A stretch of 64,000 bases of DNA from an uncultured Methanosarcinales archaeon (GTDB lineage: Archaea; Nanobdellota; Nanobdellia; Woesearchaeales; JABMPP01). Below are positions 3,190-23,366 of this stretch, piece by piece. The translations under genes were made by a program, and so were the position numbers. The DNA lies in the NCBI GenBank assembly GCA_964604995.1, contig CAZSAD010000005.1:3221-67220 (forward strand), in the 5' to 3' direction. Position 1 is the first letter of the stretch, and every line of letters starts with the position of its first letter. A model generated the notes under the pieces. The model was not told where the DNA came from. It worked only from the letters and a program-made list of their open reading frames with translations, and made no database searches.

Positions 3190-3230
3190 ATTCATAAAAT
3201 TCAATTTTTTCAATAAATAATAAATTTAAC

Positions 3231-3236: not shown

Positions 3237-3241
3237 GCAAA

Positions 3242-4534: not shown

Positions 4535-4613
4535 TTAAAAGTGTTCAATTCAATCCAGAAGCGAAAAGTATTTTAACTAACTGATATCATAAATCAATAA
4601 AAAAGGTGAAAAA

Positions 4614-5121: not shown

Positions 5122-6195
5122 TTGAATACAACTTTTTACAGAAAAAAAGTAGGGGTTAGTGTAATCTTTTCTAAGCGCAAGCTTTCTAAAAATAATTTAA
5201 TTTCTTATATCCAAAATAGTTTAAAGTTAATTGGAAAAAAAGCACAAATCACACTTTTTATGATTTTAGGTTTTGTAATACTATTTTCTTTTGGGATTTT
5301 TTACATGATGAGAAATACTACTCCTGCAAATAATTTAGATGCGCAAAATAATAAGATTATTGCAAGCAAAGATGATTTATCCAATGTTAAATTATTTGTA
5401 CAAACATGCTTAAAAAAAGCTGCAGATAAAAATACAGATGCAGAACTTGGTTATTTATGGATATTTGGTGAAAATGGTGGCACAGTAAAATTTGAATATG
5501 ATACCACAATTTCAAAAAAATTTGACACAGTGACTTTATTTGATAATGCAATAAAAAATGTTTCAATATCCTATGATATTAATGCTATTACGCAGGTAGG
5601 TAATAAAATTATAAGGAACCAAACAGATATGGAAAAAGAATTGGGAGAATATATCTTGAATGATTTTTTAAATTGCTTTAATGAAGAATCAATAAAAAAT
5701 AGAACTGGCTATTTGGTTTTTTCTCCTAAAAATTCTGCAGCTGAAGCTAAAATAAATGTCACATTCAATTATAATAATGTAAATATCGCATTGCAATATC
5801 CAATGAATCTAACAAAGGGGGATAATTTTATCGAAATAAAAAACTTTGAAGTTGATATCCCATTAAGAATTAATCAAACTTTACAGATAAGGAATAATCT
5901 GTTAGATCAAATTTCTTCTTCTTCTTCTTCTTTTGACATTTCAAATACTGATAATTGCAATATCATTTGCGATAAAGCCTTTCCCAATTATGCAAAACAT
6001 GATTTTATAATAAAAGCAGAAAATTCAGTGTCTTCCATTACCTCTGCCTCAAACACTTATACTATAATACAAATAAATGATTATTTTTCAAATATAAATT
6101 ATTATAAAAAAACCTACAAATTTTCTTTTGCATTAAATGAAACAAGTTTATCATCATCTGATCATTTAGTAACTGGTATTTGCACATGCAATTAA
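5122..6195 (+). CDS. Hypothetical N-terminally anchored, pilin-like protein, Ser-rich; start uncertain
   Basis: IGKKAQITLFMILGFVILFSFGIFYMM resembles a class III signal peptide. The ORF track starts at TTG 5122; there is no in-frame ATG before the TM segment, so a non-ATG start is implied. Contains a (TCT)6 SSSSSS tract. Confidence 0.45.
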   Translation: MNTTFYRKKVGVSVIFSKRKLSKNNLISYIQNSLKLIGKKAQITLFMILGFVILFSFGIFYMMRNTTPANNLDAQNNKIIASKDDLSNVKLFVQTCLKKAADKNTDAELGYLWIFGENGGTVKFEYDTTISKKFDTVTLFDNAIKNVSISYDINAITQVGNKIIRNQTDMEKELGEYILNDFLNCFNEESIKNRTGYLVFSPKNSAAEAKINVTFNYNNVNIALQYPMNLTKGDNFIEIKNFEVDIPLRINQTLQIRNNLLDQISSSSSSFDISNTDNCNIICDKAFPNYAKHDFIIKAENSVSSITSASNTYTIIQINDYFSNINYYKKTYKFSFALNETSLSSSDHLVTGICTCN

Positions 6196-6218
6196 TTAAC
6201 AAACTCGAAAAAAAGAAA

Positions 6219-9200
6219 ATGAAACTTAAACAAATCTTAATAATTGTAATTCTAATACTATTTTCATCAATTATCCTTTTATCAAATACTAAAAATTCAT
6301 CTGCACGTATTTTAGATTCTGACTCTGATGGTGTTTTAGATGAAGATGATTTATGTCCAGATACTTCTTTTTTCGCACCAGTTGATTTTAACGGTTGCTC
6401 ATGTGATCAAAAAAGTGTAAATAATACTTGCGTACCTGACAATAATGAATGTACTGGTTATTGCGGTGGTCCTAAGGCACAGTGCAATTATCCTTTAACT
6501 GGAGATTTGCTAAACCAGGGATTAATTTCTTGCAATGCAACTTATTGTGAAAATAATATTGTTCATACTTTCCCACAAACAATGTCTTCAAAATATTGTG
6601 TAGATGGTAATTTATTTAATAGAACTTCTTGTCAAGAAACACTTTCTTATCTCAAAGATTGCGGTAAAATACCCCTACCCATAAATCAAACAATAAATTT
6701 AACAAATCAAACCAATCAAACTATTCAACTTGGTTATTTAATTATTGAATCAAATCCTAGTAGTGCAGATATTTATCTAAACAATATTTATCAAAATAAA
6801 ACTCCAAGAAATTTTGAACTTAAATCAGGAACTTATAGACTAAATTTAATCAAAGAAGATTATATCCCTTATTCTTCGAATATCAAAATAAATTCTGGTC
6901 AACTTACTGATTTATTTATCAATCTAAATCCAGAAATTATCAATCCTTCAACATTTACATGCAATGACACTGACGGTGGAATATATTTTGAAACATTTGG
7001 AAAAGTTGCTTTGTGTAAATATTCAAATTCAACAATTGATTACTGCTTAAATTATTCTGATACTTGTGGATTGGCAGAAAATGGAAAAACATTAACTGAA
7101 TTTTATTGTCAAAATTCACAAGTAAAAAATATGACAACTGTTTGTTCAGGCCCATGTAAATATGGTGCATGTTCGCAGCAAAGCAATTTGCTACCAGTTG
7201 CAGTAATTTCAAGACCAATGCTTGGAGATTTAACTTATGTTAATGAACCTATTTACTTTAGTGGTATAAAAAGCTATGATCCTGAAGGAATGCCTTTAAC
7301 TTATACTTGGTTAATAGAAAATACTAAATCGTTTAATGTAACTACAACGCATACATTTTTAACAACTGGTATTAAATTTGCAACTTTAATTGTTTCAGAT
7401 GGAACCTATGTTGTAAATACTTCTATTAGTTTAAACATTCAAGAAAAAATAAATGGAACTAATCAAACAAATGAAACTAATACTTCCCTTTGTACTCTTA
7501 AAACAGCATTATGGTCAACTTTAGCAGCATACGAAGGGGATAATATTTCTTTATTTGTTTATGGTCCAAATTGTCAAAATAAACAACTTAATATTACAAT
7601 TTGGAGAAGAGATTTTTGGTTAGATGAATACATAGATTCAATTCCTTACCAATCATCTAATTCATTAGGTTTATTTAATGCAAGTTGGAAAGTAATTTGG
7701 AAAAATAGTGGTTGGAATTTATTTGATAACACTAAATATTATTTTGTTGCTCAAATAAAAAATTCTGAAGAAAAAATAATTTCTCCTGAAAATTTAGATG
7801 TTAAAAAATCTTCTTCTAATAATATTTTAATAACTGAACCTGGAAATTACAAATTGCAAATGAATTGGTATGATACTTCTGGAAGAACTTGGTTATCAGT
7901 AGGAGATGGTGTTTTTGGTAAATTGTTGCAAGCAGCAAAAAATGGTGATCTTTACGTAGATGTTATAATAGAAAAAAATTTTGCTATTAATGATAAATTA
8001 CTTTTAACTGATGGAACAAATAACATTGAAGTTTTAAATTATTCTCGAATTAAACTTCTTAGACCTACAACAGCAAAAAATCCACTTCTTAATGATTCAC
8101 TTAACGATTCATTTCAAACTATTGTTCGAATATACCTAAACACTCCTATTCAAAACAACTATTTATTAAATGCAATAGTAAGGCAATATTCTTTAGATTA
8201 TTCTGGAAATCTTCAAAATCTTAATGATACCATTGATTTAGGATATTTACAATATGGTGCAACTCCCATAACAAGCCATTTAACACAATGGATAAGCATT
8301 TTCAATGGTTATAATAGAACAATATTCCCTGTTGTATATTCAAATGATTCTAATTATTATTATGTTAATCAATTAAATTCAAGTAAATGGGATTTAACTT
8401 TTGACGACGGAGTAAGATTTGATTTCCCTTATAATGATGGTAATTTTCAAATTGTAAAATCCAATACGATACCTTCTTCTCCAAGTTTTGATGTTGAATT
8501 ATATGGGGCATCCATCCATTATGTTGATTTTCTTAATCCTAGCAGAAATTTTACTTTTTGGCTCAAAAACAATATACAAGAAAATAATTCCCCTTATCTT
8601 GGATTTGTTTATGGTTTAACAAATACATCTGATGAATGGATAAGCGGTGAATTTGGTGTTATTTATTATAAAGGAATCCCATACAATATAACAATTAAGC
8701 GTAGTGATGATTATACTCTACCTGTAAACCTAACAATTTCAAAAGGAACAACAAGTGTAAGTTACTTACTTTATCAAAAACAATTAACTTTCCCCTTATT
8801 CGATGGTTTAGCATTTTATATTCAAAGTTGGCCAGTTGGTTACAATTTGACAATTCTTAGTGTTGGAAAACTAGTTTACAATTTGAATTTTACAGTGCCT
8901 GTAATACAATATGGTGAAACAAAAAAAATTAATGGAACACTGCCTGCAGTAGCACCAGGCTTCTACTTGGTTATGTTTGATGCTTCACATCAAAATGATA
9001 TTGCACCATGGAACAATTTCCAAAATCCAACATATTATGTGCAAAAACAATATATTGACCTTGCAGTAAATATTCCTCCATACGATTATCTTATTGAAAC
9101 CAATACAACAACAAAATTCAATTTTACAATATCTAATTTAGGAACTATTGATGCAAAGAATAGCACTATAACAATAAATAAAACTAGTAATAATTATAAT

Positions 9201-12200
9201 TTTGGAAACAACACTCAAATAATTAAAATACCTTTGCCAATTATTCACCCTCTTGAAACATTAAATTTTTCATTTAATTATACATCAGAAAATCCTGAAG
9301 AGTTCTATTTTAAAATAAAGGTTCAAACAGAAAATGATACAGATAATGGGAATAATTATGTATATAGTTATGTAAATTCAGTTTTAGCAGGATTTAATTT
9401 ATATGTCATGTCTGCAGAAAGAAAATATCCTACGCCTTCAGAAGAAGGTTTTGTAACACTTCATACAGAAAATCTTGGTAGTAGGCCTTCTTCACAGTTT
9501 ACAGCTTACCATACAAATATAAAAGCTCTTCAATCATTTACAACTTGGATAAATCAAAATTATTCAACAGAAATCGAAGGTGTGATTTATAATATTACAC
9601 TTCTTGAAGTAGTAAAAACACAAGAATATAGTACATTAGGAAAAGCAAAGTTCAAACTTAATTATAATAATGGAACAGAAATATTTGAACTTTTTGCAGG
9701 AGAAACTATTGAATTATCAACTGGCAAATTCTTTGGTTTGATATCTACTCCAAATACTTTTTATGCATATTCTCTTATTGGAAATCTTCGCTATGTGAAT
9801 TCATTTACAGTGCCACCAATACCAATAAAATCTAATTGGGTTAAAATTAATATTACTCTTAAAAATGATACTCTTGGAAACTATTATTCATTCATAAGTT
9901 TTTATCATGCAAACGATACTTCTTTAGAAGATAATTTTGCTGTTGTTTCTTATACAATAAATCCAGATGGTCCAAATATAAGAACATTTAGTGATTGGTA
10001 TTATTACACTACAACAATAAATGAAACAATTCCAATACCTTTTACTCTTGAAAATATTGGCAATAGATATTCAGGTGATGTAAATTTCAGAATAAATATA
10101 TCTGACAAATCGCAGTTTGATCCAAATTTTAACTCTACTTTGCTCTCAGAATTTACATTGCCAGGTCTTTACCCTGGAGAAACTTCTAGTTATTCCTATA
10201 ATTTTACCTGGCAAAAAAGTGGAAAATATTTCTTATTCATGCAAGCGAACATATCAAATGACACTAACCCTTACAATAATCTTCATTATGTTACAATAAT
10301 GGTTGTTAAAAACACAACTAATGTTTCAGCAGAATTAACACTTTCAACATTAAAAGATAATTATGAAATTGGGGAAATAATTAATTTAACTGATCCGCCT
10401 GCAATAATTAATTCAAAAGCAACGCTTTCTCCAATACAATTTTCAAATTCAATAACTGGCAATGCCATTAATTTACCAACTGAACAATTTACTAATTTTG
10501 ATGATACATCTATGTTTTATCAAACCAGAAAAAATTATCCAACTAATTATACAAATAAAACTTTAGAATACAATGGTTATATTGTAAAATTCAAAAAAGA
10601 GCCAATAACAAAACAAAAAGTAAATTTAGAAAATGAAATAATAAAGCAAAAACAAATCACTCAAACATTATCTTTAACAAATAACAATCAAATAGCTGCA
10701 AGTAAACCAAATCAACAAAATTCTTTATTATTAACTGCATCAGATAAATTACAAGTTAATACTAAATTAATAGCTTACCAAGCAGAAATACAATCAGAAC
10801 ACTCTTTAGCAAAAATAGATATTTCTCAAAAATTAAGCAAATCATTAACTAGTAAGATAACAGGGGAATTTACAAAAACATTCAATGGAATTGCACTAGA
10901 TATAACTGATGCAGAAGCCCAACAGTTAAAATCAAGTTTTTATGTTGAAGAAGTTTATCCTAATTACAAAGTCTATGCAACATTAATGGACTCTGTTCCA
11001 TTAATTGGTGCAGATAAAGTTTGGCAAATAAATTCTTATGGAACACCTTGCATCAAATATGGTGGAACTGAAGAATGCTTAACTGGCAAAGGTGTAACAA
11101 TTGCAGTAATTGATACTGGTGTTGATTATACTCATCCTGATTTAGGTGGCTGTTTTGGATCGGGCTGCAAAGTTGCAGGAGGATATGATTTTGTTAGCAA
11201 TGATAATAACCCAATGGATGATAATGGACATGGAACACATGTAGCTGCAACAGCAGCAGGCAATGGAACATTAAAAGGAGTTGCACCTGGTGCAACTATT
11301 TATGCTTACAAAGTTCTTAATAGTGGCGGCTCAGGTTCCACCAATAACATTATTGCAGCAATAGAACGTTCTGTTGATCCGAATAATGATAATGATTTTA
11401 CAGATCATTTAGATATTATTTCCATGAGTCTTGGAGGCTCTGGAACTCCTGATGATCCCTTAAGTCAGGCGGTAGACAATGCAGTTGACAATGGTGTTAT
11501 TGCAGTTATTGCAGCAGGAAATTCAGGTCAGTTCAATACACCATCTATTGGTAGCCCCGGTAATTCTCGAAAAGCAATTACAGTAGGTGCAACATATAAT
11601 AAACATTCTTATAATTATTATTCTGAAATAAAACTCAACGCCACAGTTGGCGGCAGTATGGGTGACACTGATTATTTTGAAAGTATACCTGTTCTTGGTT
11701 CAATGCCTACCAATGCAAATTATCAATTGCATGATTGGATATATGCCGGAACAGGAACCATATCTAATTTTACTTCTAAAAATTTCACAAATAAAATAGC
11801 TTTGATATATTTAGATGGTGTAGAATATCCAGAAATATTATTGGAAAGAGCAATAGCATCAAATGCATATGCTGTAATATTTTATTTCAATCCTTATCCA
11901 AATAAAATTACTGATTATTATTTTCCATTAGCATATGATATTGAAATTCCATCAGCAGTCATTGCTACTAATGATATTACTACTCTTTTTGAATATACTC
12001 AAATAAATCAACCAATAAGTCTTTATTTGAATATTTCATTGGTGACTAATATTACAGATGCAGATAAAGTGCCTTATTTTAGTTCACAAGGTCCATCATT
12101 CGATGAATTTTATGCAATTGGAATCAAACCAGAAATAGTTGCCCCAGGATATGATATTTGTGCTGCTTTGACTTACAATGGTGTTTTTCCAAAATATGAA

Positions 12201-15200
12201 AGAGCATGCGGCCAAGGACATACTCCTCTTTCAGGAACAAGCATGGCAACTCCTCATGTTTCAGGAGCATCAGCACTGCTAAAACAAGCACATCCTGATT
12301 GGGGAAACAAAGAAATAAAATCTGCTTTGATGGTATCTTCAACATCTCTTGGAGAAAATCCAAATATCTTTGGTACCGGAAGAATAAATGTTACATCAGC
12401 ATTACATCCAAGAATTTATTTAAGTGAACCCACTTTGAATTTTGGGCATATTAAATTTAACGACGAAAAAACAATAACATTTACTATAAAAAATTTATTC
12501 CCTGACCAAACTATAATAAATTTAAATTTTTCATCAGTTGATTCCAATGTTCAATTGATTGTCAGTCCAAATGTTGTCAATCTTAATCCTAACGAAGAAA
12601 AACAAGTTACAGTACACTTGAAATATTTGCACGATGAACCCTCTTACTTAACACCTCTTACAAATTATCTTACAATCCAAGGTGATACCAATGCAAAAAT
12701 ACCTTTATTATATTATAAAACTACAAACAGATCAATAGTTGGATTCACTCAAGACCCTGGAGAAATTTCTTCATCATTAATACCACGTTTCTATACATTA
12801 AAACTTAACGATATTAATAACGATGGATATGTTGAGATGTTAGGGGGCAGTAGTGCACTTTTTAGTTTTAACAATTTTGAAAATAATATTTCAGATTATA
12901 ATATTTTATATGCTCCCCCTTGTATTTATGATATGTATAGTGAAGGTTGTTATCCAGATACAGTTGAATCAATAGCTGTTGAAGATTTTAACCATGATGG
13001 AAATAAAGAAATTCTTGTTGGAGGGGTACAAGGATATCTTAGGCTTCTGGAAAAAAATTATAATCCTAAAAATTTGACAAAAACAATAGTTAGTTCAGAA
13101 AACTTTACTTTTGGAAATTATAATTTTACGACATCTATAAATCCATATGGTCAATTAATAGTATCTGCTAAAAATGTTGACAATCCCTTATTTATTACTT
13201 TTTTTAATCTTAGAATTAGTGAAAGTGAATATGATAGTGAATATGGATACATTGAGAATATTATTTTTCATTTGGTAAGTTTGCAAAATGGCATTGCAAT
13301 AGTTGAATTACAAGAAAATGAATATAAACCAACTATGCTAAATAAGTTTAGAGAACAATTATGGGCAATGGACTCAGCAGATTTTAACAATGATGGTTGG
13401 CAGGATGTTGTTTTCTCTTATTCTCCTTTGCCTTTTGTTTATAATGTTTCCATTCTTTTTAATGATGGGAACGGAAATCTAAACAACCTTTATACAATAT
13501 ATAACCTATATGGTAATCAAATTTCTGGTTTAACTGTCGGAGATGTTGATAATAATGGATTTAAAGATGTAATAATAGGATATTCTATTTCTCCTAATAG
13601 CATCTATAAAACCTATGGGGTAACAAAATTACTTAAAAATAATGGCAACAACAAGTTTTATGATAGTGGAGTTATATCTACATATGGCACAGGAATCTCA
13701 GGTCATCCAGAAAATGATATTAATCCAAGAGTTGTACTAGCTGACTTTGACAATGATGGCAATCTTGAACTTGTGATTGGAGATAACAGTGGAAAAATTA
13801 GGATATTAAAGAAAGACAATACTGGCAGATATAATGAAGATTTATTAATAAATAAAGGCCTGCTTTTTGACTTTGGTCAATTATCATGGGGAGTTGCAGC
13901 AAGCGATATTAATAATGATGGTAAAATTGATTTGGTGGTTGCTTCTGCTTCAAGAAATGATTTTTATAGATTTTCACTTTATACTAAATTGAATAATGGT
14001 AATTTTACTAATTTTGCACCAGTTCGTCCAAAATCACAAATAATAAACAATGGAACAATAAATATAACTGGATATTTGTTTATGGATGTTGAACAATTCT
14101 TAGGCAATTCTTGGCAAGGATACCAAATGGTTTATGAAGATACTTTACCAAGAACAATTCCTGCAAATAATGTCCAAGCATTAGATACTATTTGGAACAA
14201 TTATAATATTTCAATTAATAATCCTGGAAAATACAGAGTTCATGCAGAGTTTAGAGATGCATATAGTGGAGAGCCAATTCAAACAACAACTGGCTATCTA
14301 AATAATTATTGGGAGTTTAATGTTAGTGGAACAATTCCAACTTTGCCTTCAGCACAACTAACTTTATCAACATTAAAAGATAATTATGAAACTGGAGAAA
14401 TAATTAATTTAACTGATCCACCAACTGGAGAAATAAACACTGCAAATGTGAATAGACTCGTAAAAAACAATGAAGATTCAATTGCTTTGCTAAATATTTT
14501 AGAAGATGCTGCTGCAAAAAGCAAACAGGAAAATAAATTTTCAGAAGGAATTATTGAACAAACCCCTACCTTTTCAAATCTTCCAAAATATGTTAAAGGA
14601 GAGTTAATAGTAAAACTAAAAAATGATATTTCAAATAAGATTAGTGCCAATGTTGTCAAAACAGATATCAGTACCTTAGACAGTTTAAACAGCAAATATG
14701 GCGTTAAGAATATTGAGAATGTTTTCCCTGCTAAACATGAAAGCTTTTTTGAAAGTTTGGCAAATAATGTAAAACAAACATTCAACATAGAAGTTCCTTC
14801 AAGAGAGTTAAATAAAGTATACAAAATTAAAATTAATCAAAATACAGATGTTGAAAAAGTTGTAAAGGAATACAGTGCAGTTTCTGAAGTTGAATATGCT
14901 GAGCCTAATTATATTTATTATACTAATTTTGTTCCAAATGACAAGCTTTATTCACAGCAATGGTCTCATCAAATAACAAGTGCTGAGATTGCATGGGATA
15001 CTGAAAAAGGAAGCTCTTCTACAATCATTGCAATTATAGATACGGGAGTAGATTATAATCATGAAGATCTTAAAACTAATATATGGCACAACCCCAAAGA
15101 AATTCCAAATAATGGAATCGATGATGATAATAATGGATATGTAGACGATACAATTGGATATGATTTTGTTGATTATCAAGAACTAGTTGATTATTGCAAT

Positions 15201-18200
15201 GCAAATCCCAATATCTGCAGGATATCTCCAAGAGAAGATTATCTCAAATTAGACAATGATCCAATGGATGTTGTTGGGCATGGAACACATTGTTCAGGGA
15301 TTGCTGCTGGAGTTGGCAACAATAATTTGGGGATAATAGGAATATGTCCTTCATGTAGCATAATGCCAGTTAGGGCAGGAATGTTAATTGAAATAAATTC
15401 AAATGGCCAATATTATCAAAGTGGTGGCCTTAGTGATGATGCAATTGTAAATGGGATTAAATATGCTACAGATAACGGAGCTAGAGTAATAAGTATGAGC
15501 TTTGGAGGAAGGGAATATTCACAACTTCAGAAAGATATGATTGATTACGCATACAGCAAAGGTGTTGTTCTTATTGCTGCTGCAGGAAATGAGAATACCG
15601 CTGAAAAACCATACCCTGCAGGTTATGATAATGTGCTTTCAGTTGGTGCAACAGATGAATTAGATAATAAAGCATCTTACTCAAATTATGGGGATTGGGT
15701 TGATGTAGCAGCGCCTGGAAGCAACATACTTAGTACAGTACCAACAAAAATAAGTTACAGTTCAGAGCTTAAACTTGGATATAGTTTATTTGATTCCTAT
15801 CCTTTTGAATATTCTGCAATAGTGGAAGATGAAAGTGTTCATGGCATGTTGGCTAATGCAGGTAATGGAACAATAGAAGAACTAAATAATGTTAACCTTA
15901 CTGGAAAAATAGTTCTTATTAAAAGAGGAGATATTTCATTTCATGATAAAGTTGAAAATGTTTATAATAAAGGTGCAATTGGTGTTATAATCTATAATAA
16001 TGCACCTGGTAGTTTTATAGGCACGTTAGTTAATCAATCAAAAATACCTGCAGTAAGTGTAAGTGAGGTAGTTGGAAATTCTTTGCTTTATTATGTTAAT
16101 AGCTCTTTGATAAATATTTCAATAAAAGTAAATAAGATAACAGAAAATTATGAACTTGAAAGCGGAACTTCTATGGCAACACCTTATGTTGCAGGAATTG
16201 CAGGATTGTTGCTATCGAAAGAACCTAGCCTAAAAAATAGTGAAGTTTATGCTAAAATTATTACCGGAATAGATTTGATTCCTGATAAAACTATAGGTCA
16301 AGGTAGGGTCAATGTTACAAAAGCATTACAAGAAAATCCTAATTCTATTATAACTCTGGAAAATGTGAATATTAATGCTAACACTGAATATAATGAGATA
16401 AATCCCGGAGCAGCAGTTGATATTTATTTTACATTAAAAAATATCGGCGCAAATGCGGGAGATGTTCAAGGAAGTATTATAATTGATAATTCTTATGCAA
16501 CTGTATCTGAAGGGAATATTGATTTTGGAACAATGGATACACTTGCAATAAGAAAAAACACTGCTCCATTTATAATAAAAATAAATAATAATACTCCTAA
16601 AGGAACTAAAATAAATGTTAAGTTAAAATTGACTTCTGCTAATTCTAACTATTCACCTGAATTTGATGTACCAATATATACTTCAAAAACAATAGTTGTT
16701 GGCAAGGATAATCAAAGTGATTATAAAAACATAGGTGATGCTGTAAAAAATGCAAATAGTGGCGATATAATTTTTATCAAAAATGGAATTTATAATGAAA
16801 CTATTACAATAGACAAAAATAATCTAAAGATTATTGGAGAGTCAAGAGATAATACTATCCTTAGTACTAATAATTCATTTGGTGTAGCATTATATATTGC
16901 AGCTGCAAAAAATGTTATTATTGAAAGTATTACATTTGAGCCAAACTCACAATTAAATATTTATAGGGGATTCTCACAAGAGGGGATATTAATATCTGGA
17001 CAAAGCAGTATTTTACCTTCAAGCAACATAAAAATCAGAAATTCTTCATTTAAAAATCTGGACTATGCAATAGATTTGAATGGTCCAGGTTACATAGAAA
17101 ATGTTACTATTTCAAATTCTACATTTATTGATAATTATGAACCTTTGATAAGAAGTATTAGTATGGGTAATAAGATTATAGATGTTTCTTTTGAGAATAA
17201 TTATGTAATAATCAACAATCTTTCAAAATGGATACCTGATGATAGCGGAGGAAATGCTTATGCTTTTTTCAATGATGGTTTGTCCAGCATAGATAATTTT
17301 AGAATAATGGGGAATCATATAATTGATAATGTTAGCAGGGAGCCTAAAAATGCAGTTTCTTTTTTGCATGTATTTATGTTAAACTTTGATGTGGATACTA
17401 AAGATTTAAATAAAAATATTTCAAATAATATATTTGAAAAAACTTATCCTGGAAATTCAAGTACTGCTTTCATACTTGGCGGAAAAAATAATTATTACAT
17501 GTCAAACAACAAATTTGTCGGAAATTATCAACATCTAATTTATAGTCTCGGTTCAAATGTAATAATTGATGGAACAAAACTACAGGACAATATTGGCTCT
17601 GAAGGGGATTATACATATTCTTGTTATTATTTTGGACCAGGCAGTCTTTTAGTTTCGCATAGTGAAATAATAAACGGTACCTTGGAAATTGATTCATGTT
17701 CTGTAAATGATAAAATAAATTATTCAGTTAATTCAAATAGGTATTCTGAGTATACTGGTGAAGATATTAATGGGGATGGAATAGGTGATACTCCTCAGAA
17801 GATTTATGACCAAAATGGAAATTTTATAACACAGGACAATACACCATTAATTTTATTTTCAGGTATAAAATTAACTCGTCCAAAATCACAAATAATAAAC
17901 AATGGAACAATAAATATAACTGGATATTTGTTTATGGATGTTGAACAATTCTTAGGCAATTCTTGGCAAGGATACCAAATGGTTTATGAAGATACTTTAC
18001 CAAGAACAATTCCTGCAAATAATGTCCAAGCATTAGATACAATTTGGAACAATTATAATATTTCAATTAATGATCCTGGAAAATACAGAGTGCATGCGGA
18101 ATTTAGAGATGCATATGGTGGAGAGCCAATTCAAACAACAACTGGCCTTCTAAATAATTATTGGGAGTTTAATGTTAGTGGAACAATTCCAATAATTCCA

Positions 18201-21200
18201 TCAGGAGAATTAAATTTATTCACATCAAAAAATAATTATCTACAACAAGAGTCAATAATACTAACTAGTAATTCAAAAATAGAAAATACTGGTTTAATCC
18301 CAATTACCGGCTATTTATCTGCTAATATCGAGCAATTTAACATTTATTATCAAATAAACGAAGAAACTGATAAAAAGAAAATTGGGAATGAATACAATTT
18401 CTTAGAACTTGGAGAGGCAATTAATGCAACTGGTCAGACAATATTCTCATCAAATGATTTAAATGCACTTTCAAATGAAACTTTCCAAAATTCTCTTGGA
18501 ACATTTACATATACTCAAAAATTAGAATTACCTTCTGCAAAAGTTGTTTTTGAAGAAGATACTGATCAATCAAATGATCCAAGCTTATACTTAAAATTCG
18601 ATGCAAATAAACCAGCATACACCTACACTTTGCAATTTACTCCTCCAATTGAAAGCGGAATCATAAATCAAACTCTTAAAGATCTACAAGGACATAATTT
18701 GCAATTATTTGACAAAACTTTTCAAATAATTTCTGCAAAAAATGAAAGTAACAAATTATCCTTAAATTTATTACAAACAGAATTAGTTGATATCTTACAA
18801 GAAGGCTCAACAAAAACTTATACTCACAATGGAAAAGACTACCAAGTAACAGCAAGTTACATCTCAAGTAGCGAAGCAAGGTTTACAATAAATGGTGAGA
18901 CAACTGATAAATTATCGGAAGGAGAAACTTACACTTTAGTCGATGGAACAAGAATTGGTGTTTTTGATATAATAACTAATTTTATTGGGGAAAATTTATC
19001 AAATAATTTTGTTCAATTTGGTTTAGGAGTAAATAACTTAAAAATAACTGATTACAATCCTTCAACAGCTAATTGGGATGCAAAAGTAGCTGATGGCAAT
19101 GAAGATTTAATGAATTTAAAAGCAGATATTATAGTTACAAGTTTTTCAAATGGTATTACTAAAATAAAAGAATTAAAATTTAAATATCTTCCTTCAACAG
19201 ATCTGCATGTACCAATTAGTGGAAAATTAAGCACAATAGCAGAGTATGAAGAAAGTGAACTAGGAAATGTTCTTGTCAATGGTTTTGATGTTCAATTAAA
19301 AGGATTTAATGAAACTCAATTAAATTGGGAAGCAATAAAAATCTTTAGCAGTTCAAGTCTTAGTTATAATTTAATATTTAGAAATAGAAATGGACAAACA
19401 TATAACATTCCTGTTTGGGGATACGATAATTCATCTAGAAAAATTAAACTAGGTTATAGGGATGATTATTCATTTAAAAATTTAATAATAAATGAAGCAA
19501 TACCTATCTTAACTAATGAATATTTTATATTAAGCCCATCCTCAACACAAAAAACACACATCTTCCAATTCAATAGTGTAAACACAAATGATAACACTTT
19601 CAAAATAAAAGATTTAATGGAAGGTGGTTCAACAATAGAAGTAACTAATGCAACATCTTTTGTTGTTGATGGAACAGCATATTATGCTTATTATAATGGT
19701 TCAGGAAGTGATGCAAAGATTTATGTTGATTTAAATGGCGATGGAATAATTCAACAAGGTCAAAAAGTAGACAAAATATATACCTTTTATTCTGGAAGCG
19801 ATGGATATTTGCAGCTTATTCAAAATAATATTTCAACAAATGCCTCAGGAATTTTTGTAACACAAAAAACTCAAAACCTGCCTCAAAATAATTTCCAAGA
19901 AAAAATAAAATGGAAATTTTATTTTAATTACACTTCAAATAAAATAATGCTTGATAGTCCCATCAATGATTTTGGATCTTATGATTCAATGAAAAAATTA
20001 GATTCACTAGACAAATATGTTGGTCTAACTTACTATGGCGCTTATGGCGACTATGATTATGGAAATGCACAAAGTCCATTATTAGAATTCCAATATCCCA
20101 ATCAACAATTAGAAATACTTGTTTATGTTATGGGTAATAATTATCCTACACCTCAAGCAATTTCAAGTTGGCAACATTATAGCACTATTATAGATGAAAA
20201 CTTTTCAAGAACAGTTCCTGCAAATAATGTCCAAGCATTAGATACTATTTGGAACAATTATAATGTTTCAATTAATGATCCTGGAAAATACAGAGTTCAT
20301 GCAGAGTTTAGATATGAATATGGTGGAGAGCCAATTCAAACAACAACTGGCCTTCTAGAAAATGTTTGGGAGTTTAATGTTAGTGGAACATCATCACAAT
20401 ATCAAATGCAAATAACCTATCCACAAAATAATTCCATAATACTTAGTAGTTCTACTCAAGTATTAGTAACTACAAATACTCCTTCTTCTTGCGATTATTC
20501 ATACATGGTAGTTTCTTCAAATGGTGTAGGTGTGGGCTCACCAACTATATTTATGTCAACAACAGATGCATATCATTTTTCTGCAACAATTAATAATTTA
20601 CTCTATGGTGATAATGTTACAGTTCATGCATATTGCTATTCTAATGAGGGTAATGTTTATGCAACCTCTTCAGTATTTTTTAGAGTTCAAATTTCTTCGC
20701 AATGTGGAAATAATTTATGTGAAGGCAATGAAACAGTGCAAAGCTGTCCAATTGATTGTAGGGAAGTAAACTATCCAGAATACTGCCCACAATATAACAA
20801 AGCAAATAATGATAATAGTAACCATGGACCAGGGGGAAACTTGGGAAATTCTTTATCACTTTCTACAAAAACAAATTTTGATACATTAAGTGAAGAAACT
20901 TTAAAGAAAATTATTATTCAAGGTGATATTCAAAAATTTAAATCATTAAAACTTTCAGTGCAAATGATAAGTCCTGGAATTTTTAGTGTAACTTCTAAAA
21001 ATCAAAGAATCGATGTAATGCAGCAAAAACTGCCTGAAATAGCAACACTAATGGATAGCAATGGAAATAAATTTGTTGTAAATCTTGCTGTAGTTTTTAA
21101 TGAGCAATATGCAAATGGTTACATTGTTGAGTTTGAAGGATTGTCATTAGTTGAATACAAAAAACAACTTGAATTAAATATCAAAGATATGCAAACCAAA

Positions 21201-23366
21201 GCAAATTCTCTAAAACAAAAAATTGATTCTAGAACTGGAATATCTAAAATACTAAATTTAGTAGATAGCCCAAGATTATCAATAGCTAAAAATTCAATAA
21301 ACACTGCAGAATTACAATTACCAAAAGAAATTTCTAAACATAAAGGGGAATTAAATACTAATGTCAATTCATTTAGAAAATCAGTTAGTAAAATAGATAA
21401 TTCTCTTGATGAAACAACAAAAATAAAAAAACAATATCAAACAGTATTTAATGGGGCATTCTTAGAAACTGATGCTAAAACTGCAATGAAAATTGCAGAA
21501 TTAAAAGGTGTTAAATCAATCAAAGCAAATAAAAAAGTTAATGTTGTATTAAATGAAAGTTCAAAAGTTATCAATGCAGATGATGTATGGCAAACAATTG
21601 ATGACAATGGTTATAACATAACAGGATTTGGTGTTAAAGTTGCAGTTATTGATACAGGTGTTGATTACACTCATCCTGATTTAGGCGGATGCTTTGGACA
21701 AGGTTGCAAAGTTGAAGTAGGATATGATTTTATCAATAATGACAATGACCCAATGGATGATCAGGGTCATGGCACACACGTTGCAGCAACAATAGCTGGA
21801 ATTAACACAATTCTAAAAGGCATTGCTCCTGATGCAAAAATATATGCTTACAAAGTTCTTGATAGCAGTGGTTCAGGCGGATCAGACGGTATAATTTCTG
21901 CAATGGAATACTGCGCTGATCCAAATCAAGATGGTAATTTTTCTGATCATGTTGATATTGCATCTTTAAGTTTAGGAGGCAATGGAGATCCTGATGACCC
22001 CATGTCTCAAGCAGTAGACGGTGCAACAGATGCAGGTGTATTATTGGTAATTGCAGCTGGAAATTCAGGACCAGATGTAGGAAGTGTTGAAAGTCCAGGA
22101 ACTGCAAGAAAGGCTTTAACAGTTGCTGCATCAAATAAATGCGATGAACTTGCAGGATTTAGTTCAAGAGGTCCAGTTGTTTGGAATAATGGCACGCTTC
22201 TAAAACCAGATATAATGGCACCAGGTGTTTCAATTTGCGCAGCGCAGTATGATTCTTGGTTTAGTGATAGAAGATGTTTAGATAATGAACATATTGCAAT
22301 CTCGGGCACAAGTATGGCAACTCCGCATGTTTCAGGTGTTGCAGCATTATTAAAACAAAAATATCCTAATTTATCTCCTACAGAATTAAAATCTTTATTG
22401 AAGCAAACTAGCTATAATCTTGGTTACACACTATTCGAGCAAGGAAATGGAAGGTTAGATGCAAAAAGAGCAATAGAAGCAAAATTAATTGTTACACCCA
22501 ATTCATTCTCTGATGATTTTACTGAAAAAACACAAGCAACCTGGACTTTAAATATTAAAAATATTTTTAATAATTCTGTATTAGTAACTATAAAATATCC
22601 AAATCCAAAAATCCTAAATTTAGCTGATGTTACTCCAACAACTTCAATCAATATTACAATTATTGGTCCAACATCTTTAAATTTAGATGCTAATTCAATA
22701 CAAAGCTTTGATGTAAATATTACCTCCTTGCCAAGTGATTTTGAAGGATATCTTTTAGGTGAAATCCAAATTTCAGATGGCAGCAATATTTATTCAGTGC
22801 CTTATCTAATCTCTAGTTTTTCTAAATTGGTAGTGTATGTTAATAAAAATGAGATAATGAAACAGTATTCAATTTTTGCTTATCGTGATGATTTTGGCTG
22901 GGCTAGCAGTATTTCTAGTAGTGATGAAATAGCGAATGGTGTTCACAAATTCAATAGGATGCTTTCTGGAAATTATTCAGTTGCAATTGCAGGCGATTTA
23001 GAAGATTGGAATAATGAATATCTTTTGTTTGGAAGAGCACATGTTCCAATGAAAGGAACTGGTGAGACCTTAATTAGTTTTGATGATGCAAGACCCTTTA
23101 CAATCAAAGCAAGATCTCTAAATAATACTCCTTTATTTTTAGTGCAGTCTGAAAAAAGATTTGAGTATAGGCTTGCAGACGGACAAGGCGTTACTTACAC
23201 AATGTCTGATCCAATTATTGGTGATAGAAAAGTTTACATCACTAATAAACCTGAATCCGGGCCAGATTTAAACATTATATTGGATTATATTGGTGTACCT
23301 TATTTGGAATCAGAAATTTCCAATAACTATCAAAAATTATTGAATGAAAATTCATTAGCAAAATAA
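6219..23366 (+). CDS. Giant (about 5716 aa) secreted multi-domain protein with three complete subtilisin-like (S8) serine protease modules
   Basis: Signal peptide MKLKQILIIVILILFSSIILLS at ATG 6219 (the track's 6180 start is TTG). TSP3-like DSDSDGVLDEDDLCPD; PEGA-like domain (~6720-6930); PKD-like domain (YDPEGMPLTYTWLIE..., ~7190-7440). S8 #1 ~10830-12420: I9-like propeptide FNGIALDITDAEAQQLK; VIDTGVDYTHPDLGG; HGTHVAAT; GTSMATPHVSGASALL; PA-like insert. FG-GAP-like repeats (DFNHDGNKEILVGG, DFDNDGNLELVIGD, DINNDGKIDLVVAS) ~12780-13960. S8 #2 ~14590-16330: IIDTGVDYNHEDL; GHGTHCSGIAAG; GTSMATPYVAGIAGLL; PA insert GKIVLIKRGDISFHDKVENVYNKGAIGVIIYNN. Parallel beta-helix region ~16700-17600. S8 #3 ~21430-22470: VAVIDTGVDYTHPDLGGCFGQGC; GHGTHVAAT; GTSMATPHVSGVAALL. 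Confidence 0.85.
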   Translation: MKLKQILIIVILILFSSIILLSNTKNSSARILDSDSDGVLDEDDLCPDTSFFAPVDFNGCSCDQKSVNNTCVPDNNECTGYCGGPKAQCNYPLTGDLLNQGLISCNATYCENNIVHTFPQTMSSKYCVDGNLFNRTSCQETLSYLKDCGKIPLPINQTINLTNQTNQTIQLGYLIIESNPSSADIYLNNIYQNKTPRNFELKSGTYRLNLIKEDYIPYSSNIKINSGQLTDLFINLNPEIINPSTFTCNDTDGGIYFETFGKVALCKYSNSTIDYCLNYSDTCGLAENGKTLTEFYCQNSQVKNMTTVCSGPCKYGACSQQSNLLPVAVISRPMLGDLTYVNEPIYFSGIKSYDPEGMPLTYTWLIENTKSFNVTTTHTFLTTGIKFATLIVSDGTYVVNTSISLNIQEKINGTNQTNETNTSLCTLKTALWSTLAAYEGDNISLFVYGPNCQNKQLNITIWRRDFWLDEYIDSIPYQSSNSLGLFNASWKVIWKNSGWNLFDNTKYYFVAQIKNSEEKIISPENLDVKKSSSNNILITEPGNYKLQMNWYDTSGRTWLSVGDGVFGKLLQAAKNGDLYVDVIIEKNFAINDKLLLTDGTNNIEVLNYSRIKLLRPTTAKNPLLNDSLNDSFQTIVRIYLNTPIQNNYLLNAIVRQYSLDYSGNLQNLNDTIDLGYLQYGATPITSHLTQWISIFNGYNRTIFPVVYSNDSNYYYVNQLNSSKWDLTFDDGVRFDFPYNDGNFQIVKSNTIPSSPSFDVELYGASIHYVDFLNPSRNFTFWLKNNIQENNSPYLGFVYGLTNTSDEWISGEFGVIYYKGIPYNITIKRSDDYTLPVNLTISKGTTSVSYLLYQKQLTFPLFDGLAFYIQSWPVGYNLTILSVGKLVYNLNFTVPVIQYGETKKINGTLPAVAPGFYLVMFDASHQNDIAPWNNFQNPTYYVQKQYIDLAVNIPPYDYLIETNTTTKFNFTISNLGTIDAKNSTITINKTSNNYNFGNNTQIIKIPLPIIHPLETLNFSFNYTSENPEEFYFKIKVQTENDTDNGNNYVYSYVNSVLAGFNLYVMSAERKYPTPSEEGFVTLHTENLGSRPSSQFTAYHTNIKALQSFTTWINQNYSTEIEGVIYNITLLEVVKTQEYSTLGKAKFKLNYNNGTEIFELFAGETIELSTGKFFGLISTPNTFYAYSLIGNLRYVNSFTVPPIPIKSNWVKINITLKNDTLGNYYSFISFYHANDTSLEDNFAVVSYTINPDGPNIRTFSDWYYYTTTINETIPIPFTLENIGNRYSGDVNFRINISDKSQFDPNFNSTLLSEFTLPGLYPGETSSYSYNFTWQKSGKYFLFMQANISNDTNPYNNLHYVTIMVVKNTTNVSAELTLSTLKDNYEIGEIINLTDPPAIINSKATLSPIQFSNSITGNAINLPTEQFTNFDDTSMFYQTRKNYPTNYTNKTLEYNGYIVKFKKEPITKQKVNLENEIIKQKQITQTLSLTNNNQIAASKPNQQNSLLLTASDKLQVNTKLIAYQAEIQSEHSLAKIDISQKLSKSLTSKITGEFTKTFNGIALDITDAEAQQLKSSFYVEEVYPNYKVYATLMDSVPLIGADKVWQINSYGTPCIKYGGTEECLTGKGVTIAVIDTGVDYTHPDLGGCFGSGCKVAGGYDFVSNDNNPMDDNGHGTHVAATAAGNGTLKGVAPGATIYAYKVLNSGGSGSTNNIIAAIERSVDPNNDNDFTDHLDIISMSLGGSGTPDDPLSQAVDNAVDNGVIAVIAAGNSGQFNTPSIGSPGNSRKAITVGATYNKHSYNYYSEIKLNATVGGSMGDTDYFESIPVLGSMPTNANYQLHDWIYAGTGTISNFTSKNFTNKIALIYLDGVEYPEILLERAIASNAYAVIFYFNPYPNKITDYYFPLAYDIEIPSAVIATNDITTLFEYTQINQPISLYLNISLVTNITDADKVPYFSSQGPSFDEFYAIGIKPEIVAPGYDICAALTYNGVFPKYERACGQGHTPLSGTSMATPHVSGASALLKQAHPDWGNKEIKSALMVSSTSLGENPNIFGTGRINVTSALHPRIYLSEPTLNFGHIKFNDEKTITFTIKNLFPDQTIINLNFSSVDSNVQLIVSPNVVNLNPNEEKQVTVHLKYLHDEPSYLTPLTNYLTIQGDTNAKIPLLYYKTTNRSIVGFTQDPGEISSSLIPRFYTLKLNDINNDGYVEMLGGSSALFSFNNFENNISDYNILYAPPCIYDMYSEGCYPDTVESIAVEDFNHDGNKEILVGGVQGYLRLLEKNYNPKNLTKTIVSSENFTFGNYNFTTSINPYGQLIVSAKNVDNPLFITFFNLRISESEYDSEYGYIENIIFHLVSLQNGIAIVELQENEYKPTMLNKFREQLWAMDSADFNNDGWQDVVFSYSPLPFVYNVSILFNDGNGNLNNLYTIYNLYGNQISGLTVGDVDNNGFKDVIIGYSISPNSIYKTYGVTKLLKNNGNNKFYDSGVISTYGTGISGHPENDINPRVVLADFDNDGNLELVIGDNSGKIRILKKDNTGRYNEDLLINKGLLFDFGQLSWGVAASDINNDGKIDLVVASASRNDFYRFSLYTKLNNGNFTNFAPVRPKSQIINNGTINITGYLFMDVEQFLGNSWQGYQMVYEDTLPRTIPANNVQALDTIWNNYNISINNPGKYRVHAEFRDAYSGEPIQTTTGYLNNYWEFNVSGTIPTLPSAQLTLSTLKDNYETGEIINLTDPPTGEINTANVNRLVKNNEDSIALLNILEDAAAKSKQENKFSEGIIEQTPTFSNLPKYVKGELIVKLKNDISNKISANVVKTDISTLDSLNSKYGVKNIENVFPAKHESFFESLANNVKQTFNIEVPSRELNKVYKIKINQNTDVEKVVKEYSAVSEVEYAEPNYIYYTNFVPNDKLYSQQWSHQITSAEIAWDTEKGSSSTIIAIIDTGVDYNHEDLKTNIWHNPKEIPNNGIDDDNNGYVDDTIGYDFVDYQELVDYCNANPNICRISPREDYLKLDNDPMDVVGHGTHCSGIAAGVGNNNLGIIGICPSCSIMPVRAGMLIEINSNGQYYQSGGLSDDAIVNGIKYATDNGARVISMSFGGREYSQLQKDMIDYAYSKGVVLIAAAGNENTAEKPYPAGYDNVLSVGATDELDNKASYSNYGDWVDVAAPGSNILSTVPTKISYSSELKLGYSLFDSYPFEYSAIVEDESVHGMLANAGNGTIEELNNVNLTGKIVLIKRGDISFHDKVENVYNKGAIGVIIYNNAPGSFIGTLVNQSKIPAVSVSEVVGNSLLYYVNSSLINISIKVNKITENYELESGTSMATPYVAGIAGLLLSKEPSLKNSEVYAKIITGIDLIPDKTIGQGRVNVTKALQENPNSIITLENVNINANTEYNEINPGAAVDIYFTLKNIGANAGDVQGSIIIDNSYATVSEGNIDFGTMDTLAIRKNTAPFIIKINNNTPKGTKINVKLKLTSANSNYSPEFDVPIYTSKTIVVGKDNQSDYKNIGDAVKNANSGDIIFIKNGIYNETITIDKNNLKIIGESRDNTILSTNNSFGVALYIAAAKNVIIESITFEPNSQLNIYRGFSQEGILISGQSSILPSSNIKIRNSSFKNLDYAIDLNGPGYIENVTISNSTFIDNYEPLIRSISMGNKIIDVSFENNYVIINNLSKWIPDDSGGNAYAFFNDGLSSIDNFRIMGNHIIDNVSREPKNAVSFLHVFMLNFDVDTKDLNKNISNNIFEKTYPGNSSTAFILGGKNNYYMSNNKFVGNYQHLIYSLGSNVIIDGTKLQDNIGSEGDYTYSCYYFGPGSLLVSHSEIINGTLEIDSCSVNDKINYSVNSNRYSEYTGEDINGDGIGDTPQKIYDQNGNFITQDNTPLILFSGIKLTRPKSQIINNGTINITGYLFMDVEQFLGNSWQGYQMVYEDTLPRTIPANNVQALDTIWNNYNISINDPGKYRVHAEFRDAYGGEPIQTTTGLLNNYWEFNVSGTIPIIPSGELNLFTSKNNYLQQESIILTSNSKIENTGLIPITGYLSANIEQFNIYYQINEETDKKKIGNEYNFLELGEAINATGQTIFSSNDLNALSNETFQNSLGTFTYTQKLELPSAKVVFEEDTDQSNDPSLYLKFDANKPAYTYTLQFTPPIESGIINQTLKDLQGHNLQLFDKTFQIISAKNESNKLSLNLLQTELVDILQEGSTKTYTHNGKDYQVTASYISSSEARFTINGETTDKLSEGETYTLVDGTRIGVFDIITNFIGENLSNNFVQFGLGVNNLKITDYNPSTANWDAKVADGNEDLMNLKADIIVTSFSNGITKIKELKFKYLPSTDLHVPISGKLSTIAEYEESELGNVLVNGFDVQLKGFNETQLNWEAIKIFSSSSLSYNLIFRNRNGQTYNIPVWGYDNSSRKIKLGYRDDYSFKNLIINEAIPILTNEYFILSPSSTQKTHIFQFNSVNTNDNTFKIKDLMEGGSTIEVTNATSFVVDGTAYYAYYNGSGSDAKIYVDLNGDGIIQQGQKVDKIYTFYSGSDGYLQLIQNNISTNASGIFVTQKTQNLPQNNFQEKIKWKFYFNYTSNKIMLDSPINDFGSYDSMKKLDSLDKYVGLTYYGAYGDYDYGNAQSPLLEFQYPNQQLEILVYVMGNNYPTPQAISSWQHYSTIIDENFSRTVPANNVQALDTIWNNYNVSINDPGKYRVHAEFRYEYGGEPIQTTTGLLENVWEFNVSGTSSQYQMQITYPQNNSIILSSSTQVLVTTNTPSSCDYSYMVVSSNGVGVGSPTIFMSTTDAYHFSATINNLLYGDNVTVHAYCYSNEGNVYATSSVFFRVQISSQCGNNLCEGNETVQSCPIDCREVNYPEYCPQYNKANNDNSNHGPGGNLGNSLSLSTKTNFDTLSEETLKKIIIQGDIQKFKSLKLSVQMISPGIFSVTSKNQRIDVMQQKLPEIATLMDSNGNKFVVNLAVVFNEQYANGYIVEFEGLSLVEYKKQLELNIKDMQTKANSLKQKIDSRTGISKILNLVDSPRLSIAKNSINTAELQLPKEISKHKGELNTNVNSFRKSVSKIDNSLDETTKIKKQYQTVFNGAFLETDAKTAMKIAELKGVKSIKANKKVNVVLNESSKVINADDVWQTIDDNGYNITGFGVKVAVIDTGVDYTHPDLGGCFGQGCKVEVGYDFINNDNDPMDDQGHGTHVAATIAGINTILKGIAPDAKIYAYKVLDSSGSGGSDGIISAMEYCADPNQDGNFSDHVDIASLSLGGNGDPDDPMSQAVDGATDAGVLLVIAAGNSGPDVGSVESPGTARKALTVAASNKCDELAGFSSRGPVVWNNGTLLKPDIMAPGVSICAAQYDSWFSDRRCLDNEHIAISGTSMATPHVSGVAALLKQKYPNLSPTELKSLLKQTSYNLGYTLFEQGNGRLDAKRAIEAKLIVTPNSFSDDFTEKTQATWTLNIKNIFNNSVLVTIKYPNPKILNLADVTPTTSINITIIGPTSLNLDANSIQSFDVNITSLPSDFEGYLLGEIQISDGSNIYSVPYLISSFSKLVVYVNKNEIMKQYSIFAYRDDFGWASSISSSDEIANGVHKFNRMLSGNYSVAIAGDLEDWNNEYLLFGRAHVPMKGTGETLISFDDARPFTIKARSLNNTPLFLVQSEKRFEYRLADGQGVTYTMSDPIIGDRKVYITNKPESGPDLNIILDYIGVPYLESEISNNYQKLLNENSLAK
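14025..14340 (+). repeat. Intragenic repeat R1 (~315 nt, ~95% identical to R2)
   Basis: cgtccaaaatcacaaataataaacaatggaacaataaatataactgg... through ...gttagtggaacaattcca; encodes RPKSQIINNGTINITGYLFMDVEQFLGNSWQGYQMVYEDTLPRTIPANNVQALDTIWNNYNISIN.PGKYRVHAEFRDAY.GEPIQTTTG.LNNYWEFNVSGTIP. Confidence 0.85.
17878..18193 (+). repeat. Intragenic repeat R2, copy of R1 with about 8 substitutions
   Basis: Direct read-by-eye alignment with 14025-14340. Identity is lost on both sides (ttaact|cgtcca upstream, ccaataattcca downstream). Confidence 0.85.
20204..20390 (+). repeat. Intragenic repeat R3, partial third copy (~190 nt) mosaic between R1 and R2
   Basis: agaacagttcctgcaaataatgtccaagcattagatac...gttagtggaaca. 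At the variable positions it carries R1-type and R2-type bases alternately. Confidence 0.8.

Follow-up and report, generated by a model that had tools for sequence, protein, structure and literature searches.

The DNA considered here is a 64-kb window, by which we mean the whole stretch of contig CAZSAD010000005.1 that was analysed, from an uncultured, low-GC archaeon of the DPANN group, a tiny Woesearchaeota/Nanoarchaeota-like organism from groundwater. The window is AT-rich, with a GC content of about 0.25-0.32, and carries the archaeal housekeeping genes for eIF2-gamma and a NOG1-type GTPase; a tRNA scan and an Rfam scan of the window returned nothing. The subject of this report is a giant open reading frame (ORF) which codes for several subtilisins of peptidase family S8 in one polypeptide. 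This ORF was listed with a TTG start, and an ATG at position 6186 or 6219 is likely to be the real start codon. As had been claimed in the initial annotation, three full subtilisin modules reside in a single uninterrupted reading frame, in which Pfam recognized three Peptidase_S8 domains. A frameshift between the modules, named there as the sign that these are really separate genes, is not visible, the frame being continuous throughout.

From its N-terminus the chain consists of a signal or anchor segment with an adhesin-like region (in Pfam order PEGA, PKD and two CARDB domains), cassette 1 (an I9 propeptide, an S8 domain with a protease-associated (PA)-like insert, an FG-GAP region and a connector), cassette 2 (a fervidolysin-type prodomain, an S8 domain with a PA insert, a region with a pectinesterase-type match and a connector), an S-layer-like segment followed by its own connector, and a last cassette composed of I9, S8 and C-terminal beta-sandwich domains (Table 1). 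Neither the connector domain nor the S-layer-like segment nor a Cys-rich linker could be assigned to a Pfam family, and thus a stretch without any family separates the pectinesterase-type match from the last I9. The Cys-rich, Asp-rich head of the N-terminal region is also present, as judged by homology, in P0138, one of the related giant proteins described below. Upon a hydropathy scan of the whole chain, only one further position exceeded the threshold (aa 3052, score 1.63), located within the catalytic domain of module 2, and the internal cassettes showed no hydrophobic signal of their own. The giant protein contains 134 N-X-S/T sequons and on this ground is probably extracellular. The Pfam match at the start of the pectinesterase-type region suggests that this region may form a right-handed beta-helix.

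Table 1. Features of the giant ORF, with nucleotide positions in the window and residue numbers of the encoded protein.
Feature	Position (nt)	Strand	Residues (aa)	Basis and remarks
Giant ORF	6180..23366	+	5,728 aa/codons	Continuous frame without stops; window free of N
Signal peptide or N-terminal membrane anchor	6219..6284	+	14-35	Sole strongly hydrophobic segment (hydropathy scan)
Adhesin-like N-terminal region	6270..10316	+		PEGA, PKD, two CARDB (Pfam); dense N-X-S/T sequons
Propeptide 1	10572..10979	+	1465-1600	Inhibitor_I9, 34.1 bits; AlphaFold2 model
Subtilisin module 1	11052..12419	+	~1625-2080	D1645, H1684, N1781, S2021
Diverged PA-like insert of module 1	11592..12059	+	~1805-1960	155 aa
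FG-GAP/VCBS beta-propeller region	12927..13979	+		Pfam; after module 1
Connector domain, copy 1	14004..14414	+	2609-2745	Domain of ~135 aa; no Pfam family
Prodomain 2, fervidolysin-type	14547..14924	+	~2790-2915	Pfam
Subtilisin module 2, thermitase-like	14925..16349	+	2916-3390	D2954, H3034, N3137, S3331; Asp-rich insert between Asp and His
PA domain of module 2	15858..16085	+	3227-3302	Just before the catalytic Ser; Pfam PA
Pectinesterase-type region	16692..17849	+		Pfam Pectinesterase match only at the start (aa 3505-3570)
Connector domain, copy 2	17856..18266	+	3893-4029	Spanned by independent contig L003
S-layer-protein-like segment	18354..20129	+	4059-4650	Between modules 2 and 3
Connector domain, copy 3, diverged	20166..20462	+	4663-4761	
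Propeptide 3	21111..21554	+	4978-5125	Inhibitor_I9, 24.8 bits; AlphaFold2 model
Subtilisin module 3, Tk-SP/Vpr-like	21555..22514	+	5126-5445	D5158, H5197, N5295, S5378; no PA insert
C-terminal beta-sandwich domains of cassette 3	22515..23363	+	5446-5728	AlphaFold2 model; collinear with the C-termini of standalone enzymes

The counterparts of D32, H64, N155 and S221 were placed by alignment to subtilisin BPN'. The triad motifs were found where the initial annotation had put them, that is DTG at nt 11112, 15039 and 21651, HGTH at nt 11229, 15279 and 21768, and GTSMA at nt 12234, 16164 and 22305. The Asp, the His, the oxyanion Asn and the Ser are intact in three of three modules, within the conserved contexts DTG, HGTH, AAGN and GTSMATP, and no replacement of a catalytic residue was observed. 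Against the Peptidase_S8 profile (PF00082), modules 1 and 2 taken together reached an E-value of 1.5e-115, module 3 one of 8.1e-63, and a slice that stops three quarters of the way through module 1 one of 1.8e-44, all of them far from chance level. Module 1 matched Vpr (8jmw) with an E-value of 1.6e-65 (HMMER against the PDB), and the top sequence match of module 2 was thermitase (1thm; E 3.6e-51), all four motifs being aligned in the comparisons of these two modules with Vpr, Tk-SP and thermitase. Module 3 matched Tk-SP (3afg; E 4e-52), with which the Asp, His and Asn align, the Ser being opposite the Ala of an S-to-A crystallization mutant. The Asp-His-Ser order with the oxyanion Asn and the profile match place the three modules in family S8, and the subtilisin fold was obtained for modules 1 and 3 in the models described below. 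All three are apparently active proteases and, going by their sequences, none is a pseudo-protease. Some catalytic domains of animal polyserases and of carboxypeptidase D are inactive according to the respective reports (PMC1435904; PMC5683605), and one or more of the S8 modules could likewise be dead, with only a binding or structural role. With the four residues and their contexts preserved in each module, and no point in favour of such a reading found in this protein, we consider it very improbable.

An I9-like propeptide had been proposed to precede each module, and this held true for modules 1 and 3, whereas module 2 carries a prodomain of another family. When the prodomain segments were scanned alone, those of modules 1 and 3 exceeded the Inhibitor_I9 gathering cut-off of 21.2 bits (Table 1). 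That of module 2 gave no I9 match and scored 42.6 bits with Fervidolysin_NPro-like (cut-off 21) and 38.9 bits with Peptidase_S8_N (cut-off 30.5), both of which are related prodomain families. Modules 1 and 3 were modelled with AlphaFold2, the cassette 3 model covering aa 4978-5728 and being based on an alignment of 79 sequences. The latter reached a predicted local distance difference test (pLDDT) value of 90 and a predicted template modelling score (pTM) of 0.87 and, the last six residues aside, fell below a pLDDT of 50 only at VNVVLNE, the pro/mature junction. Its top Foldseek matches were Vpr, ProN-Tk-SP, unautoprocessed pro-subtilisin E (TM-score 0.82, target-normalised) and pro-Tk-subtilisin. 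The module 1 model had a pLDDT of 81 with a low-confidence junction at ATLMD, and in Foldseek further matched PA-bearing subtilases such as SBT3, cucumisin and C5a peptidase. For both modules, the matches 3whi, 2e1p, 2z2z and 3afg cover the prodomain and the catalytic domain together. Alignment and modelling of the modules with their propeptides, as suggested in the initial annotation, thus revealed for modules 1 and 3 intact motifs and the canonical fold of unprocessed pro-subtilisins. As prodomain and catalytic domain superpose on the crystal structures of pro-subtilisins, the prodomain is predicted to be docked as in the known precursors. In both I9 propeptides a helical hairpin of ~75-85 residues, modelled with high confidence, is inserted after the first beta-strand and is not part of the 82-position Pfam I9 profile. 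In module 2, the junction YYTN/FVPNDKLY aligns residue for residue to the start of the 1thm chain, which is the N-terminus of mature thermitase. The alignment of junctions to known ones and their appearance as low-confidence linkers in the models lend indirect support to an autocatalytic cleavage.

PA-domain-like inserts had been assigned to modules 1 and 2. That of module 2 was recognized by Pfam as PA (E 9.6e-18) and lies between the oxyanion Asn and the Ser, as in the PA-bearing subtilases of the Vpr, pyrolysin, C5a peptidase and plant SBT type. The insert of module 1 gave no Pfam PA match even at E<=1 and is strongly diverged. It aligns weakly to the PA regions of the homologue P0261 (E 6e-5) and of Vpr (8jmw), which has its own PA insert at the same site, and the AlphaFold2 confidence was low over most of its length. 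Since the inserts of the two modules occupy different positions in the fold, they were acquired independently.

Modules 1 and 3, which had been described as close paralogs, exhibit 50% identity over 284 aa and 67% over the core, and module 2 is 25-28% identical to either of them. Although the two indeed belong to one subfamily, each is nearer to enzymes of other genomes than to its partner. In the N-terminal half of the catalytic domain module 1 is 79% identical to the Nanoarchaeota enzyme P0025 and module 3 is 75% identical to P0035, as compared with 67% between modules 1 and 3, and in a neighbour-joining tree the two are not sisters. Modules 1 and 3 thus share a subfamily but did not arise by a recent internal duplication. 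The stretch VIDTGVDYTHPDLGGCFG.GCKV..GYDF that they have in common is real, but the subfamily at large has it as its consensus.

Every copy of the connector domain closes a cassette, and the same domain is found at the C-terminus of the standalone S8 enzyme P0035. Copies 1 and 2 are 84-91% identical at the protein level and 94-97% at the DNA level. A second repeat, the 25-aa motif LTLSTLKDNYExGEIINLTDPP, is duplicated at 10325-10399 and 14348-14422, just upstream of prodomains 1 and 2 (92% protein and 89% DNA identity), and a degenerate version follows connector 2. Over 606 residues the S-layer-like segment shares 47% identity with the middle portion of standalone archaeal proteins of ~800 aa, one of which bears the name 'S-layer protein [Candidatus Woesearchaeota archaeon]'. 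When aligned with P0002 (843 aa), only residues 87-681 of this protein were matched, and its N-terminal ~86 and C-terminal ~160 conserved residues have no counterpart in the giant protein. The segment was accordingly rejected as a full-length Woesearchaeota-type S-layer protein (PF05124), the conserved regions at both ends being missing. Standalone enzymes of relatives (~970-1,300 aa, organized as I9-S8(-FG-GAP) and equipped with their own signal peptides; P0011 and P0044) are collinear with cassette 3, residues 206-951 of P0011 aligning to aa 4937-5706, and enzymes of this type could be aligned to cassette 1 over the prodomain and the S8 domain. As each cassette corresponds to a separate secreted protein in relatives, the giant protein appears to be an in-frame concatenation of such units.

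A mis-assembly could create a similar picture if modules from two or more large genes had been joined in frame via the near-identical connector repeats. Several observations indeed weigh against a single genuine chain. The join between cassettes 1 and 2 runs through a 364-nt repeat (14024-14387) that is 94-97% identical to a second copy, so that the repeat flanks cassette 2. The connector-1 junction was not found on metagenome contigs in two exact-pattern scans, and no independent contig extends across it. The protein collections contained neither the whole giant protein nor a 100% match to module 1, and the independent short contigs are chimeric at their ends and neither confirm nor refute the connector-1 join. 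Elsewhere, the source population was seen only as contigs of 2-5 kb. One of the independent contigs, L003, corresponds to positions 14494-18987 of the window at 99.98% identity and thus starts 100 nt downstream of connector 1, module 2 being called there as a 1,506-aa 'gene', which at face value favours separate genes. However, both ends of L003 (1-794 and 5289-5450) are GC-rich foreign sequence with 2x coverage; therefore this contig is chimeric and its 'gene' provides no evidence for a separate gene, yet the contig spans connector 2. The contig encoding P0010 is similarly chimeric after aa 5542 (residues 615-826 of P0010 are non-matching). Both contigs were rejected as proof of separate genes on account of their foreign or compositionally different ends. 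A further contig, L002, has a non-matching part (1-537) with a Radical_SAM_N gene in place of the genes found in the window, for which strain variation or a chimera are possible explanations.

Homologues are collinear with the giant protein past the L003 breakpoints (P0138 and P0035 across aa 2770, P0002 across aa 4270) and also continue with the version of the window at the P0010 breakpoint. Moreover, the cassettes lack signal peptides of their own, and giants with several S8 modules, one of them with three, are present in other assemblies, the locus of P0138 being syntenic with that of the window. Altogether, an assembly artefact is improbable, and the connector-1 join is the main residual uncertainty. 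A mis-join at this point would still leave modules 2 and 3 together in one chain.

The multi-subtilisin layout is not restricted to this contig. In a HMMER search with module 3 against 1.84 billion representative proteins, giants with several matched stretches headed the list, and the relatives were then analysed by motif and phmmer. At least ten giants with two S8 modules and one with three are present in public data. Three full catalytic triads were found in P0132 (6,948 aa, JGI/IMG), in which the first module is of the thermitase type with a module-2-like prodomain and the other two are of the module-1/3 type with I9-like segments; the thermitase-type module thus comes first in P0132 and second in the giant ORF. 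P0130, P0131, P0133-P0138, P0162 and P0223 have two triads each, and in P0130 Pfam detected two S8 and two I9 stretches. I9-like segments precede most of the extra S8 modules of these relatives, and none was detected in P0136 or P0162. All these giants resemble the ORF described here in carrying two or three full S8 modules per chain and differ from it in the number and order of their cassettes. The named entries among them are listed as 'S8 family serine peptidase' of Candidatus Woesearchaeota or of an 'archaeon', for example NQV09388.1 (P0138), MBI3027625.1 (P0136) and MFH1850682.1 (P0135). In P0131 and P0133-P0137, the catalytic Asp and His are in several cases ~150-800 residues apart (for example D278 and H711 in P0134), indicating that large domains are inserted inside the catalytic domain. 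A two-S8 ORF was seen within the flanks fetched at one (L045) of 79 loci from species-representative genomes. The multi-subtilisin layout is therefore rare but recurrent, and it is conserved. This recurrence in other archaeal giants, the S-layer-like segment and the repeated domain closing three cassettes are additions to what the initial annotation had described. No paper describing such multi-S8 giants, or several subtilisin domains in one chain, was found in the literature, where the matches for 'three' or 'multiple' subtilisins concern separate genes.

P0138 (3,373 aa) is collinear with the giant protein in its head, PKD domain, module-2-type S8, connector, S-layer-like segment and module-3 cassette reaching to the C-terminus, whereas it has no counterpart of the module-1 cassette. 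The synteny extends to the neighbouring genes. A small ORF with a pilin-like N-terminus overlaps the start of P0138, and the gene downstream of P0138 is an orthologue (E 2e-40) of the 3,043-aa CARDB protein encoded downstream of the giant ORF. In the window, small ORFs (16-639, 765-1451, 1557-2033, 2092-2544, 2668-3189 and 5122-6195) are clustered immediately upstream of the giant gene, and the last of them overlaps with the start of this gene. The N-termini of these small ORFs resemble archaeal class-III (type IV pilin) signal peptides, for example KKRGQAALEFLMTYGWAVLVVLVVIG and GKKAQITLFMILGFVILF, and the ORF upstream of P0138 shares the pilin-like N-terminus of the upstream ORF of the window. 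The downstream 3,043-aa protein (23397-32528) starts with a lipobox-like LTGCPSGEG sequence and contains CARDB domains; an exact look-up gave no match for it. Its last 383 aa (31377-32525) matched Peptidase_C25, the gingipain family (E 1.9e-8, 34.4 bits, cut-off 23), a match that was lost when longer slices were scanned. Based on this match, a second giant protein with a protease-like domain is present at the locus.

Several known systems share single traits with the giant protein. Tk-SP of Thermococcus kodakarensis (3afg) and Vpr of Bacillus (8jmw) have the same prodomain and catalytic fold and the same active-site motifs as modules 1 and 3, but are single-module enzymes of roughly 600-800 aa with their own signal peptide, whereas in the giant ORF two such units and a third unit from a different subfamily are internal to a 5,728-aa chain. 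Module 2, whose catalytic core has thermitase (1thm) as its best sequence match, departs from this enzyme by its fervidolysin-type prodomain, the Asp-rich stretch inserted between Asp and His, and the PA domain ahead of the Ser. The polyserases (human TMPRSS9 and relatives) likewise contain several, namely three, catalytic serine-protease domains per translation product (PMC1435904), and the giant ORF with its three S8 domains has the polyprotease architecture of two or more complete catalytic domains per product. These are, however, animal enzymes of the chymotrypsin fold (S1) without I9-type chaperone prodomains, so that the analogy is one of architecture and not of homology. Polyserase-1 is reported to be membrane-bound and processed into independent protease units (PMC1435904).

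Among proteins of ultra-small and presumably host-dependent cells, the nanohaloarchaeal SPEARE proteins and the Omnitrophota giants are similar to the giant ORF in being extracellular, multi-thousand-residue chains with adhesion domains (PMC6642349), and for the Omnitrophota giants it has been proposed that S8 domains cut the giant protein (bioRxiv 10.1101/2023.11.21.568195). The anchor of SPEARE proteins lies close to the C-terminus, they possess an ATPase-like domain in the cytoplasm, and their protease domain is disputed (PMC10266531). In contrast, the giant ORF has an N-terminal hydrophobic segment only and three unambiguous S8 modules. Membership in the SPEARE group was rejected, as the sole strongly hydrophobic segment is that of aa 14-35 and no SPEARE-type Pfam domain is present. 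A physical association of protease and S-layer is known from Staphylothermus marinus, where STABLE, a protease of the subtilisin family, is bound non-covalently to the tetrabrachion S-layer and the S-layer precursor is cleaved (PMC5744192). There, protease and S-layer protein are separate gene products, whereas the giant ORF unites the proteases with an S-layer-like segment in a single polypeptide. As such, both pro-subtilisins and giant surface proteins of archaea are known, but a precursor that concatenates several pro-subtilisins and includes an S-layer-like segment is undescribed, even though the databases contain such proteins.

The propeptide of I9-type subtilases is required for folding and is then severed in cis by the enzyme itself; up to its degradation it acts as an inhibitor. 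For activity, the C-terminus of the propeptide has to be out of the substrate cleft, and in the characterized I9 enzymes this depends on cleavage. Against this background we propose that the giant ORF encodes a surface polyprotein of concatenated cassettes, the whole of which would be exported via the single N-terminal signal. Each subtilisin would fold on its own upstream propeptide, acting as an intramolecular chaperone, and the pro/mature junction would be cut in cis as in canonical pro-subtilisins, with predicted cuts near aa 1600 (KVYA/TLMD), 2915 (YYTN/FVPND) and 5122 (NVV/LNE). Processing would leave an adhesin fragment on its anchor and set apart three proteases that differ in the binding modules appended to them, namely the FG-GAP region, the pectinesterase-like region with the S-layer-like segment, and the C-terminal beta-sandwiches. 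Each protease might be inhibited transiently by the propeptide left on the preceding fragment. The function of the system is likely to be surface proteolysis, either for the acquisition of peptides or in an attack on the envelope of a host. An autoprocessing precursor is favoured because the cassettes correspond to standalone secreted enzymes and the models of modules 1 and 3 match unprocessed pro-subtilisins. To this reading as a whole, comprising a genuine cell-surface protein, the concatenation of cassettes and their self-cleavage, we would assign a probability of roughly 60%.

The same architecture might instead represent a display scaffold, either uncleaved or with parts that remain associated through tight complexes of propeptide and enzyme, much as PCSK9 retains its prodomain, that keeps three proteases and their binding modules together on the surface, the prodomains serving as latency switches and not as release sites. 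It is at odds with the fact that an active site filled by an uncut propeptide cannot work. Furthermore, none of the modules in relatives examined by motif has lost its catalytic residues, an indication that activity matters, and the modelled junction linkers are flexible, low-confidence segments. On the other hand, only one membrane or signal segment is present in the chain, so that fragments set free would no longer be anchored, adhesion-type modules (FG-GAP, pectinesterase-like, S-layer-like, CARDB and PKD) are interleaved with the proteases, and a nanohaloarchaeal giant surface protein was found largely intact, above 315 kDa (PMC6642349). Weighing these points, we regard a scaffold of this kind as rather unlikely, and prefer the autoprocessing surface polyprotein.

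Taken one step further, and here we can be only tentative, with the odds somewhat against us, this precursor might be a self-dismantling surface polyprotein, in which the propeptides would be folding catalysts as well as sites of cleavage and latency. It would give rise to an anchored adhesin and three differently targeted subtilisins in a 1:1:1 manner, one of them fused to an S-layer-like segment able to insert into or bind the S-layer, and each subtilisin would stay inactive until the tethered upstream propeptide was degraded, for example on contact with a host.

Subtilisin propeptides, the textbook example of an intramolecular chaperone, have to our knowledge been studied almost only at the N-terminus of single-module enzymes. 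Three internal pro-subtilisin units pose the question of how a larger protein fares when its own backbone has to be cut by canonical autoprocessing. For the databases the finding means that entries labelled only 'S8 family serine peptidase' actually hold two or three S8 modules each. The pilin cluster and the second giant protein with its gingipain-like domain beside the gene mark the locus as a candidate cell-surface or host-interaction island, and the proposed precursor offers a testable model of how genome-reduced, host-dependent archaea may deploy several hydrolases from one exported precursor. Should the self-dismantling polyprotein prove true, Woesearchaeota would possess, as a conserved strategy, a prokaryotic equivalent of viral polyproteins and of the animal polyserases that is built on subtilisins.

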